From the sequence record NC_054921.1: DNA of 64,000 nucleotides. One strand, 5' to 3'. The position numbers and the translations under genes were made by a program. This document shows, in pieces, positions 1-53,528 of the stretch. Below the pieces are notes generated by a model. That model did no database searches and was not told the origin of the DNA. It worked only from the letters and a program-made list of their open reading frames with translations. How positions within the stretch are numbered: the first letter of the stretch is position 1; each line of letters starts with the position of its first letter. The stretch comes from Escherichia phage vB_EcoM_IME537.

Positions 1-1365
1 GGAGCTAGTACTAAGTATGGAAGCGATGGGTCAATGAATAGACCAACTGTTTCTGTGTTTAAAAATGTCGAGGTTCTCGACGAAAATGTAGGAATTCTTA
101 AAACTGCCATTGAAACATCTCAGGAAGATATTAAAACCATTCAAGGCATTTTAGATGTATCAGGAGATATAGAAGCGCTATCACAGATCAGTGTTAATAA
201 AAATGATATATCAAATTTAAAGACACTCACGAATGAACATACTGATATATTAAATGGTACAAATACTACGGTTGATAATATTCTTTCTGATATTGGTCCA
301 TTTAATTCGCAAGCAAATTCAGTTTATAGAACGATTAGAAATGATTTGTTATGGATTAAAAGGGAATTAGGACAATATGCTGGGCAAGACATTAATGGTC
401 TTCCTGTTGTAGGAAATAGCAGCACGGGTATGAAGCACCGCATCATTAATAATACAGATGCTATAACTTCCCAAGGAATACGTCTAAGTGATTTGGAAGA
501 AAAATTTATTGAATCTGATGTAGGTTCACTGACAATTGAAGTCGGAAATCTTAGACAAGAACTTGGACAAAGACCATCTTCATTCAGTGAAAGCATATAT
601 TCACGTGTGCATAATTTAGATCAATCTCAAATTAATCTTAGTTCCGAAATTAAATCTATCAAAACTTCTATTGGATATCCAGGAAATACTTCAATAATCA
701 CAGATGTTAACACTAATACACGAGAAGTTTCAGCTTTAAATGATGAACTAAATAAAAGCGGAGGTATTAAACAACGATTGACTGTCATTGAAACGTCAAT
801 TGGCTCAGATGATATTCCTTCTAGTATTAAAGGTAGAATTAAAGATAATACAACATCTATTGAGTTTTTAAATGGAATTGTTGGTGAAAACACTTCATCT
901 GGACTACGAGCAAATGTTTCATGGCTAAACCAAATCGTTGGAACTGATTCTAGTGGAGGTCAGCCTTCTCCTCCTGGGTCTCTTTTAAATAGGGTTTCAA
1001 CTATTGAAACCTCTGTTAATAGATTGAACAATGATGTTCAAAACTTACAAGTTGAAATTGGTAATAACACTACTGGAATTAAAGGCCAAGTTGTTGCACT
1101 AAATAAACTAGTAAGCGGCACAAATCCAAATGGTTCAACAGTAGAAGAGCGCGGATTAACTAATTCAATAAAAGCTAATGAAACTAACATTTCTTCTATT
1201 AATCAAGAAATGCGTAGTATTAAAAGTAATGTATCTTCATTACAGGGGGATGTTCAGACTTTACAGGAAGCAGGTTATATTCCTGAAGCTCCAAAGGATG
1301 GTCAAGCTTACGTTCGTAAAGACGGCGAATGGGTATTACTTTCTACCTTTTTATCACCAGCATAA
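1..1365 (+). CDS. wac: Fibritin (whisker/neck fibre), 5' partial; reading frame is open to position 1
   Basis: C-terminal foldon [30 protein letters not shown]; coiled-coil heptads; sits upstream of gene 13 as in T4. Confidence 0.93.
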
Positions 1366-29178: not shown

Positions 29179-29182
29179 CAAT

Positions 29183-29206
29183 GGGGACCGAAAGGTCCCC
29201 ATATTT
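29183..29206. terminator. Bidirectional terminator GGGGACC-GAAA-GGTCCCC with T-run
   Basis: 7-bp GC stem, GNRA loop, ATATTTTTATTT. Confidence 0.7.
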
Positions 29207-29497
29207 TTATTTACGGAATGAAATAAAAGCAGCAACTGAAGCAACTAAACTGTCTTCAATATAAACTTCAATTTTTACCGGAGCTTCTGACTCAAATTTA
29301 CCTGTTACTACACCTTGGAAAATGCTTTCAGTCTGTTCTGGCTTTGAAAAATTTTCAGAAGGAAAAATTCCAAACTTTTTATCTGTTCCGAAAATTTTGA
29401 TAAATTCATCATAAACCACTTCGTTAAAAGCATTATCAGCAGGAATAACGCCTTCAACTACAAGTTCTTGACCTAAAAAGCGTAAAGAAGATTTCAT
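29207..29497 (-). CDS. Hypothetical early protein (alt.-3-like position) expressed from the early promoter cassette
   Basis: 96 aa, ATG with GAGG RBS inside the conserved leader. Confidence 0.6.
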   Translation of the reverse strand: MKSSLRFLGQELVVEGVIPADNAFNEVVYDEFIKIFGTDKKFGIFPSENFSKPEQTESIFQGVVTGKFESEAPVKIEVYIEDSLVASVAAFISFRK

Positions 29498-29506
29498 TTT
29501 GTGTTC

Positions 29507-29562
29507 CTCATGTTATGTCAGTAAGTCTACTATAACACAACACGAGGGACTTGTAAACTACA
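29507..29562 (-). promoter_or_regulatory. T4 early promoter cassette, copy 1 (-35 GTTTAC, 18-nt spacer, -10 TATAGT, leader with RBS)
   Basis: 52 of 53 nt identical to 43601..43656. Confidence 0.65.
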
Positions 29563-29917
29563 TTTTGAACTTTTTAGTACGCGTAATAGGCATGCGTCGA
29601 TTTTATACTGTTTCATTGTTTGAAGAGCAGTATCAAAACAGCATTAATGACACCAATTGGATTTCCACCCAAGTTTTTAAGCTTAACTAATGATAGTTTC
29701 TCATTAACACCTATCATTACGATATGCATCATTTTGTCGCCTGGTTTAACGTTTTATCTGTATCACCGCCAGAGGTGTATGTACAAAATCTAAATCCAGG
29801 AAGCACGCTTTCTTCGCCGGCTTGAATAGCAAAAATTTGTGGTATTTTATGCTTAGGATTTAAGTTAACAACCGGCGCCGAAGCGCCGTCAAATAATTAT
29901 GTAATAAGTTCCATGAT
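29563..29917 (-). pseudogene. Degenerate duplicate of the 5' ~350 bp of alt (Alt N-terminal ~117 codons) with stops and frameshifts
   Basis: about 75% DNA identity to 31620..31969; translation MELIT*LFDGASAPVVNLNPKHKIPQIF...TYTSGGDTDK...KMMHIV... mirrors the Alt N-terminus. Confidence 0.7.
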
Positions 29918-36384: not shown

Positions 36385-36753
36385 TTATGCAACTTTAATC
36401 CAATTATCTAAATTTAATTCACCTTTGGCTTTCATTTTTTCAATCAAGAGGTCAGCGGTAATACGACCATTTTGATACCACGTAACATCTTCAGAGTAAC
36501 CAGTTTCTTTATCTTCATAAGTCTCACAGCGAATTTTACCAAGAATCAAAGTTTTTAATTCGTATGTATCTCCAGTAAAAAAGTTAGTTAACATTATTTT
36601 CCAAGAGAAATCATCAGAAGGACCTTCAGGAGTCATACAATCTACGAATTCAAATTGTTCTTTATATAAATGCCACTGAAGTTCTTTAGTTTCAATAGCT
36701 TTATAGCCGTCGTGATCTTTACCTTTGATGTATGAGTTAAGATTGATTTTCAT
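36385..36753 (-). CDS. Hypothetical protein (30.x block)
   Basis: 122 aa. Confidence 0.55.
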   Translation of the reverse strand: MKINLNSYIKGKDHDGYKAIETKELQWHLYKEQFEFVDCMTPEGPSDDFSWKIMLTNFFTGDTYELKTLILGKIRCETYEDKETGYSEDVTWYQNGRITADLLIEKMKAKGELNLDNWIKVA

Positions 36754-36780
36754 TTTATTCTCCTTTGTTTGTGTAAGATA

Positions 36781-36810
36781 ATACTATCACAAAGGAACCA
36801 TACTGTAAAC
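36781..36810 (-). promoter_or_regulatory. Early promoter (-35 GTTTAC, 18-nt spacer, -10 TAGTAT)
   Basis: same architecture as the alc cassette; imperfect inverted repeat around the -10. Confidence 0.4.
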
Positions 36811-42748: not shown

Positions 42749-43098
42749 TTAGAAAGGTCCTGGATGTCTTCTGCGAACTTGTTGAAGGAGTTGTTGATTT
42801 GTTTTTCAACCAATCCTGGCTTATGAGCCACCACATCCGCCTTCTTTGCATCTTTGCGCAGTTTTTCATTTTCACGCTCAATAGCAGCAATTGCCTCACG
42901 ATTTTTATTATTCATCGCATCAATATAATTATACTGAATTCGCAAATTATCTAATGCTAAAGCGTTTTCATTGGCCGTTTTTGTAATTTCAGTAACCGAT
43001 GTTTCTAATCTTTCTACCTTATTTTTTAAAATAATAGATGTTCCGCCAAATGCTATTACAAGTAATAGCAATCCAGCTGTAAAATTACTTACATGCAT
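42745..43098 (-). CDS. Inner-membrane spanin (Rz-like)
   Basis: 117 aa; N-terminal TM helix AGLLLLVIAFGGTSIIL then coiled coil; adjacent to the lipoprotein. Confidence 0.65.
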   Translation of the reverse strand: MHVSNFTAGLLLLVIAFGGTSIILKNKVERLETSVTEITKTANENALALDNLRIQYNYIDAMNNKNREAIAAIERENEKLRKDAKKADVVAHKPGLVEKQINNSFNKFAEDIQDLSK

Positions 43099-43595
43099 AA
43101 AGTTTTAATAACCTCTACAATATCGTCTTGAGAAAGACCGTTAATTAAAATATGATGTTCAGCCGGAGATTTAGAAATTTTAAAGCATGCCTCAACATCT
43201 TCTGCCATATCTGATGCACTACGATTTGGATTACTAATTCCAAGACGATGTTTTCCCGTCAAAGGATTAACGATGATGTAGCATTTACAGCTATTAATGT
43301 GAACATTAGGTTGAGTCTGATTAATAAACACATCACAATCATATTTCGCAAGCTGATTTTCTAAAAAGACTTTCATCTCCTCAACCGCATCAGGAAGCAT
43401 ATCACGGGCTTGCTCAAGACGACGATTTCGATATTCTTTAATGGTCGTTTTCCGCTTGACTTGCTTAGCTAAATCTTTCTTAAGATCAGTGATATATCCA
43501 ACTCGACGATTTCCTTTGAATACAGAAATCCCATCTGTAGTATCACCGTATGCTTCAACGACCATCTCAGTAGTAATAAGCTGCAAATCCATCAT
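43089..43595 (-). CDS. alc: Alc, host transcription shutoff protein
   Basis: 168 aa; position between rnlA and the spanins, directly downstream of an early promoter. Confidence 0.75.
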   Translation of the reverse strand: MMDLQLITTEMVVEAYGDTTDGISVFKGNRRVGYITDLKKDLAKQVKRKTTIKEYRNRRLEQARDMLPDAVEEMKVFLENQLAKYDCDVFINQTQPNVHINSCKCYIIVNPLTGKHRLGISNPNRSASDMAEDVEACFKISKSPAEHHILINGLSQDDIVEVIKTLCM

Positions 43596-43600
43596 AAAGT

Positions 43601-43656
43601 CCTCATGTTATGTCAGTAAGACTACTATAACACAACACGAGGGACTTGTAAACAGC
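43601..43656 (-). promoter_or_regulatory. T4 early promoter cassette, copy 2 (GTTTAC...TATAGT plus leader with RBS) for alc
   Basis: 52 of 53 nt identical to 29507..29562. Confidence 0.65.
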
Positions 43657-45244
<1,588 letters not shown>

Positions 45245-53498: not shown

Positions 53499-53528
53499 AT
53501 AGTATCACACTACTACCCTTCTGTAAAC
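53499..53528 (-). promoter_or_regulatory. Early promoter (-35 GTTTAC, 18-nt spacer, -10 TACTAT)
   Basis: same spacing as the alc cassette. Confidence 0.4.

Follow-up and report, generated by a model that had tools for sequence, protein, structure and literature searches.

Why does one stretch of regulatory DNA stand, nearly letter for letter, before two dissimilar genes ~14 kb apart in a T4-like phage, and what might it do there? The window analyzed, a 64-kb stretch of a Tequatrovirus (T4-like) genome, contains a 54-nt direct repeat on the − strand, one copy preceding alt.-3 (copy A) and the other preceding alc (copy B; Table 1). Delimited by gap-free extension, the copies are identical at 53 of 54 positions and differ solely at cassette position 33 (A/T). 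A 53-mer with W at this variable base has two matches, both on the − strand, at 29506–29558 and 43601–43653, and no chance match appeared in 100 shuffles even at three mismatches. No longer near-exact dispersed repeat occurs in the window. The answer we favor, and consider fairly probable, is that the repeat is a duplicated early promoter–leader with a hairpin that masks the Shine–Dalgarno (SD) sequence, its alc copy being ancestral, copied to alt.-3, and homogenized by gene conversion.

A preliminary description of this DNA had reported a cassette present twice with one mismatch, placed one copy before alt.-3 and the other before alc, and noted that the former adjoins a decayed alt duplicate. 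Pattern match and gap-free extension confirm the repeat, both gene assignments are right, and the remnant of a second alt gene indeed abuts copy A. Its coordinates need small corrections at the ends: the downstream end was 1–2 nt short and the upstream end (29562, 43656) 3–4 nt too far.

Homology between copies A and B ends abruptly at both sides. In the 1.5-kb flanks on each side of both copies, nothing turned up beyond noise-level matches that are short and not colinear, and at E ≤ 100 the Alc and Alt.-3 proteins do not match each other. Unrelated flanks and dissimilar downstream proteins rule out a segmental duplication; the earlier view of a cassette, rather than of two segments homologous along their whole length, stands. 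The 3′ end of the cassette lies 7–10 nt ahead of the downstream ATG, and where the second alt gene is intact in other phages its TAG stop overlaps cassette base 1. Because the neighboring stop and ATG sit so close, each copy is essentially a complete intergenic control region, from upstream stop to downstream start. The copy A region is 99.3% identical to Salmonella phage GRNsp7 and 97.5% identical to T4. The second alt remnant beside it consists of roughly 348 nt from the start of the gene and 19 nt from its end, joined by a ~1.7-kb deletion with 9-nt microhomology that ends just upstream of the cassette. This T4-type reduced second alt occurs in ~89 of 502 phage records; the paralogue is full-length (685 aa) in most others, and only one alt gene is present in ECML-134.

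Table 1. Elements of the cassette and neighboring genes (cassette numbering 1–54 along the − strand; window coordinates refer to the 64-kb stretch)
Feature	Cassette positions	Window coordinates	Strand	Remarks
−35 TTTACA	2–7		−	
Spacer, 17 nt	8–24		−	
TGT (extended −10)	22–24		−	
−10 TATAGT	25–30		−	
SD GAGG	50–53		−	Also written GAGGA
Copy A		29505..29558	−	Whole intergenic region 5′ of alt.-3; probably derived: alc type, unlike outgroup alt.-3 promoters
Copy A −35 TTTACA		29552..29557	−	Inside T4 early-promoter motif GTTTAC
Copy A extended −10, TGT then TATAGT		29529..29537	−	
Copy A predicted transcription start		29522	−	A 7 nt past −10 hexamer; promoter geometry
Copy A hairpin 5′ arm CCTCGTGTTGTGTT		29534..29547	−	Anti-SD; in promoter spacer, upstream of predicted start
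Copy A hairpin 3′ arm GACATAACATGAGG		29506..29519	−	Includes SD GAGG, 29506–29509
Copy B		43600..43653	−	rnlA–alc intergenic region; probably ancestral: architecture kept before alc elsewhere
Copy B −35 TTTACA		43647..43652	−	Consensus scan
Copy B extended −10, TGT then TATAGT		43624..43632	−	Consensus scan
Copy B predicted transcription start		43617	−	Promoter geometry
Copy B hairpin 5′ arm		43629..43642	−	Anti-SD
Copy B hairpin 3′ arm		43601..43614	−	Includes SD GAGG, 43601–43604
alt.-3		29207..29497	−	96 aa; driven by copy A
Second alt gene remnant (T4 alt.-1/alt.-2)		29559..29917	−	TAG overlaps copy A base 1
alc		43089..43592	−	167 aa; driven by copy B; alternative ATG 43595
rnlA (gene 63)		43657..44781	−	Upstream of alc; stop ends 3 nt before copy B; 5′ end set by T4's 1125-nt CDS (mechanical ORF to 44817)

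The consensus scan finds TTTACA-17-TATAGT with TG at both sites, matching the consensus at 10 of 12 positions; some phages have TATAAT in place of TATAGT at copy A. This arrangement, together with the early expression of alt.-3 and alc in T4, agrees with the earlier reading of the repeat as an early promoter with leader and ribosome-binding site. The predicted start at cassette position ~37 was placed by rule of thumb, and a literature search for start-site data on the two promoters returned nothing relevant. The sequence 5′ of copy B is very A/T-rich and that 5′ of copy A moderately so; the repeat itself begins at the −35. With ordinary T4 early promoters (GTTTAC ... TGn TATAAT) the module shares the GTTTACA −35, the 17-nt spacer, TGn, the −10, and early downstream genes. 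It differs from them in that copies A and B remain identical through the non-consensus spacer, start region, and leader, and identity through these parts therefore reflects homology, not consensus similarity.

Short-word blastn of the full-length 54-mer against GenBank returned 498 phage records (1037 places in 540 records). The ~498 Tequatrovirus genomes carry two copies each, at the same two loci, and the same search found no full-length cassette outside Tequatrovirus. T4 carries both copies, which differ at no more than 2 of 54 bases from those in this window. Genomes that appeared to have a single copy when megablast was run with the cassette proved, on direct reading and by short-word blastn, to be a word-size artifact, and a weak Mosigvirus match to cassette positions 12–42 (E = 0.3) falls in the rI/tk region and is not an orthologue. 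Pattern scans of IMG/VR and of metagenomes gave 8 loci each, too few for population statistics; GenBank intervals were used instead.

Folding bears out the stem-loop previously noted in the cassette and reveals what had been missed, that its 3′ arm is the Shine–Dalgarno sequence. Cassette positions 12–25 pair with 40–53 (14 bp, of which three are G–T/G–U) and 28–31 with 36–39 (4 bp), leaving the −10 box and the expected start (~A37) in the loop. The cassette folds as DNA at −9.6 kcal/mol (z about −4), and the hairpin alone as RNA at −22.0 kcal/mol. In read-through RNA the hairpin is predicted to dominate both the MFE and the centroid structure at both loci, with a probability of an unpaired SD of at most 0.008. 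When an RNA starts at the predicted site, it has no 5′ arm, and its folding is not significant (−4.8 and −2.2 kcal/mol; z −1.0 and −0.1). The SD of the short copy A RNA is still mostly paired in the ensemble (P unpaired ~0.07), in a 5-bp helix of ~−2 kcal/mol that is trivial against the −22 kcal/mol hairpin. Pair-breaking variants within Tequatrovirus are 16G>T, 18G>A, and 29G>A. The RegB motif is GGAG; the SD of Tequatrovirus is GAGGA, and we do not consider a RegB cleavage site in the cassette likely.

The hairpin probably restricts synthesis of each protein to mRNA started at that protein's own early promoter; the working we propose is built on structure and covariation. The 5′ arm, with its anti-SD CCUC, lies in the promoter spacer, just past the −35. 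Host RNA polymerase initiating at the module's own promoter would produce mRNA without the 5′ arm; the ribosome site would therefore be free, and Alc or Alt.-3 would be made immediately after infection. Transcripts reading in from rnlA or from the late gene alt would carry both arms, fold, and hide the SD, so that later read-through RNA would be translationally silent. Expression classes recorded in T4 bear on this scheme: alt is late as RNA and as protein; alt.-1/alt.-2 give middle RNA with no protein detected; alt.-3, which follows the late gene alt, is early as both RNA and protein, as is alc; and rnlA has early RNA and late protein. These classes fit a working early promoter right before alt.-3, with read-through RNA later. 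A scan found no terminator-like site between rnlA and alc.

The proposed logic is that of T4 e, soc, 49, and I-TevI, but with an early rather than a late promoter in the hairpin. In these genes, and in mobE of phage Aeh1, the SD of long transcripts is locked in a helix, and a promoter within the DNA for the 5′ strand or loop gives proximal transcripts from which the 5′ arm is missing and which are translated (Uzan and Miller 2010, PMC3014915); alc and alt.-3 are absent from the gene list of that paper. The cassette resembles these cases in that the SD is, by prediction, paired in upstream-initiated RNA and in that the internal promoter, given its inferred start, would yield RNA without the 5′ arm. 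It departs from them in timing: their internal promoter is late (gp55) and their silent RNA early, whereas the cassette, known here from its sequence, has an early sigma-70 promoter, and its silent RNA would be middle or late read-through. The same mechanism would hold with opposite timing. alc and alt.-3 would accordingly join the short list of T4 genes whose translation appears promoter-dependent, with the logic inverted, early-only versus late-only.

Because alc is conserved well past Tequatrovirus, its upstream region can be followed in other genera, and we collected it from records of Dhakavirus, Mosigvirus, and Karamvirus as well as from contigs of IMG/VR. Every lineage retrieved except Mosigvirus shares one layout: stop codon, GTTTACA, a 5′ arm starting with the anti-SD, the −10, and a 3′ arm whose end is the SD. 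The arms vary in sequence among Dhakavirus, Karamvirus-like phages, EcS1, Cronus, and the L046/L061 lineage but remain complementary and always end at the SD (arm pairs TCTCCATTTGGTT/AACCAAATGGAGA, TCCTCATTTTGTTG/CAACAAAATGAGGA, and TCTCCTCAG/CTGAGGAGA), with folds of −15.6 to −28 kcal/mol. Raw MAFFT alignment followed by RNAalifold recovered no consensus structure from these upstream sequences because the stem register differs between lineages. We therefore registered each sequence on its own predicted stem, a procedure that favors pairing, and used for covariation the 11 rows that keep register, as MAFFT had shifted the loop-padded 15-sequence alignment. Across these 11 rows standard pairs fill 84.8% of cells versus 69.3% in shuffles (0/500), nine pairs have changed on both sides versus 0–3 with the partner slid, and the covariation score is 0.459 versus 0.190 in shuffles (0/500). 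By our own count over the 15 sequences, columns 12–16 are paired in all 15, a single column showing as many as four pair types, and overall 83% pair versus 34–50% in slid controls.

The SD constrains the 3′ arm. Nothing in the promoter demands a particular sequence of the 5′ arm, which occupies the spacer and yet stays complementary; this persistence points to selection for SD masking. An SD within the 3′ arm best explains the conservation of the stem-loop. The alc gene of Mosigvirus has no SD-masking hairpin, and the hairpin is therefore dispensable in at least one genus.

How copy A came to stand before alt.-3 can be read from the outgroups. The gene is conserved in other genera at the same position, after alt and before gene 54, and every outgroup alt.-3 promoter is of another early type, with a short spacer-confined hairpin (e.g., CCACAaggaTGTGG) that leaves the SD unmasked. 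The alt.-3 loci of outgroups and of Tequatrovirus can be aligned as orthologous sequence up to GTTTACA and again from ACATGAGGA onwards. Since outgroups keep the hairpin at alc and a different promoter at alt.-3, we infer that, in the ancestor of Tequatrovirus, the alc module took the place of the inner part of the alt.-3 promoter then resident. The exchange was probably a short recombination patch with its ends in the motifs common to both promoters, GTTTACA and ACATGAGGA. The alc promoter of Mosigvirus JS09 (L037, 3710–3814; L053) resembles the short spacer-hairpin promoters found before alt.-3 elsewhere, which suggests a promoter replacement in the opposite direction.

The two copies have also remained alike since. 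We compared 24 A and 22 B copies, with both available from 21 genomes, in a sample partly chosen for carrying variants: 12 of 54 positions vary, none is a fixed A/B difference, and at six (positions 15, 16, 27, 29, 32, and 33) the two loci have a polymorphism in common. The variant set A29/A32/T33, which creates a perfect TATAAT, occurs at both loci in vB_EcoM-G28, PP01, UFV09, and ZCEC15, four genomes that may represent a single event, and at locus A only in three others. The A–B distance is 2.0 within a genome versus 2.44 between genomes (permutation P = 0.012); orthologous A–A copies differ by 2.63. Because fixed differences are absent, polymorphisms are shared, and the same rare variant set stands at both loci, the comparison indicates that occasional gene conversion between loci 13–15 kb apart keeps the copies alike, although the 13 changes among Tequatrovirus copies are too few for a clean split between conversion and recurrent mutation at some sites. 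In the Dhakavirus IMG/VR contig UViG_2706795356 (L054, L067), alc and alt.-3 share an identical 32-nt leader, ACCTTACACAAACATGAGGAGAACATTATGAA, behind promoters that differ; the two leaders share only 10 nt in five sister contigs. This leader represents an independent, partial exchange between the alc and alt.-3 loci in another genus.

An account without gene conversion would put the likeness of the copies down solely to strong purifying selection on every position, or to their having converged toward the consensus of T4 early promoters. T4 early promoters do have an extended consensus in common, and the −35, extended −10, and SD region are invariant in all copies. We nevertheless regard this account as highly improbable: variation within the genus proceeds at a rate similar to that of the surrounding genome and never separates A from B, the six shared polymorphisms include the same three-site set at both loci of the same genomes, and the spacer and loop differ freely between genera and are therefore not fixed by promoter function. 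A different objection concerns the hairpin, which might act mainly as an attenuator or terminator, or as a 3′-end stabilizer for rnlA and alt, with the SD incidental. PeSL stem-loops (see below) are terminators in reporter assays (Arbiol et al. 2010, PMC2839356), and the vB_EcoM_ASO78A record (MZ726795.1; L005, 2520–2569) annotates the copy A hairpin, by a prediction program, as a rho-independent terminator. As the stem has no T-tail, this annotation is probably wrong. The sequence itself leads us to reject an intrinsic terminator: neither locus has a T-tract after the stem, and the scan that picks out the real bidirectional terminator at 29181–29202 passes over the hairpin. Across lineages, moreover, the stem register shifts (i+j = 60, 62, 65) with the 3′ arm always on the SD and the 5′ arm always anti-SD. 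Hairpins that span the −10 in other early promoters of the window stop short of the SD, and inclusion of the SD is therefore a specific feature. A hairpin serving mainly termination or 3′-end stability is, on this evidence, unlikely.

The preliminary description had likened the repeat to the promoter-early stem-loops (PeSLs) of T4-type phages, thought to mediate the shuffling of accessory genes, and a further rival reading would make the cassette a mobile PeSL, a portable recombination site that swaps accessory genes, for example via mini-circles. The architecture supports the comparison: the upstream stop, −35, −10, stem-loop over the −10, and SD fit the PeSL description, and inverted repeats extend across the −10 in most of the window's strict GTTTAC early promoters. 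Sequence has passed between the alc and alt.-3 promoter regions more than once, and ~50 bp of shared sequence suffices for T4 recombination (cited in Arbiol et al. 2010, PMC2839356). Shuffling of accessory genes, however, is not supported by the distribution. Each of the ~498 genomes has two copies, not dozens, at fixed positions; none of 498 genomes shows a chimeric junction, whether rnlA–cassette–alt.-3 (deletion) or alt2–cassette–alc (duplication or circle); and a comparison of segments between phages, which had been suggested as a check, places alc and alt.-3 at the same positions in Dhakavirus, Mosigvirus, and Karamvirus, showing that the promoter moved and the genes did not. The alt-paralogue deletion and the vB_EcoM-G28 duplication both end at microhomology outside the cassette. 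A crossover between the copies would delete or duplicate ~14 kb with the essential genes 30 (ligase) and 31, a loss or gain that may explain why only non-crossover products are seen. The T-even elements are, besides, analogues rather than homologues of PeSLs (Arbiol et al. 2010, PMC2839356). We judge a mobile PeSL to be very unlikely.

Set beside the PeSLs of RB49 and phi1 (Arbiol et al. 2010, PMC2839356), the cassette is alike in being an intergenic promoter, stem-loop, and SD that runs from stop to ATG, and in exchange between copies. PeSLs, however, number ~50 and sit in hyperplastic regions among variable ORFans, whereas the cassette has two copies before genes conserved across genera. Their stem is rich in G/C tracts (polyG/polyC) and acts as a terminator or attenuator; that of the cassette is AT/GT-rich, with no T-tail and no terminator call. 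PeSL recombination yields insertions, deletions, replacements, and mini-circles, whereas we found no chimeric junction or rearrangement at the cassette. The elements of T-even internal-protein loci, as far as the account of Repoila et al. (1994) given by Arbiol et al. (PMC2839356) goes, combine an early promoter of T4 type with a stem-loop that is weaker, AT-rich, and variable in size, a form common to most early promoters in the window; in that account they flank highly variable genes, whereas the cassette flanks two conserved, syntenic ones.

A duplicated, SD-masked early promoter homogenized by gene conversion would be a clean natural case of a whole promoter and leader copied onto another gene and kept in step by conversion over ~14 kb. 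It would also imply that T-even regulatory cassettes can exchange without gene movement, a refinement of the PeSL shuffling model. C-terminal extensions of Alt.-3 lead to T4 escape from the CmdTAC defense, and the reading predicts that Alt.-3, which can mutate to defeat CmdTAC, runs on the same schedule as the host-shutoff protein Alc.

A bolder extension would join three proposals: a small class of proteins translated only immediately early (Alc, Alt.-3, and the ORF at 36753), the recruitment of alt.-3 into the Alc regime, and a targeted "promoter conversion" driven by hairpin DNA. SD-masking hairpins with embedded early promoters would confine these proteins to the first minutes of infection; copying of the whole promoter and leader would have brought Tequatrovirus alt.-3 under Alc's control regime; and hairpin DNA, for instance a cruciform cut by a phage nuclease, could drive repeated, independent exchange in two genera, making the exchange targeted rather than a passive outcome of homology. 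Taken as a whole, this extension is distinctly unlikely.

Several further features of the region are recorded here. The early promoter of the ORF at 36753 (36753–36810, − strand; GTTTACAGTATGG...TAGTAT) is the third in this window with an anti-SD in its spacer: there TTCCTTTGT is complementary to ACAAAGGAG, the SD downstream, and the fold has −12.1 kcal/mol. The promoter precedes a 122-aa ORF that starts at 36753, in the position of gene 30.8, and has a cassette-like design in unrelated sequence. The strict GTTTAC early promoters at 53528, 40347, and 36380 (− strand) carry 11–16 bp inverted repeats centered on the −10 and short of the SD, an arrangement similar to the PeSL class whose stem-loop overlaps the −10. 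The terminator at 29181–29202 is a perfect 9-bp GC-rich bidirectional hairpin, ATGGGGACC gaaa GGTCCCCAT, between the convergent gene 54 and alt.-3. In vB_EcoM-G28 (MG867727.1; L019, 16345–16749), a 351-bp tandem duplication that takes in the 3′ end of rnlA, the cassette, and ~148 nt from the start of alc has produced a third cassette copy and a truncated alc fragment; the duplication reaches from 150 nt upstream of the cassette to 148 nt downstream of it, and we rejected the cassette as its mediator.
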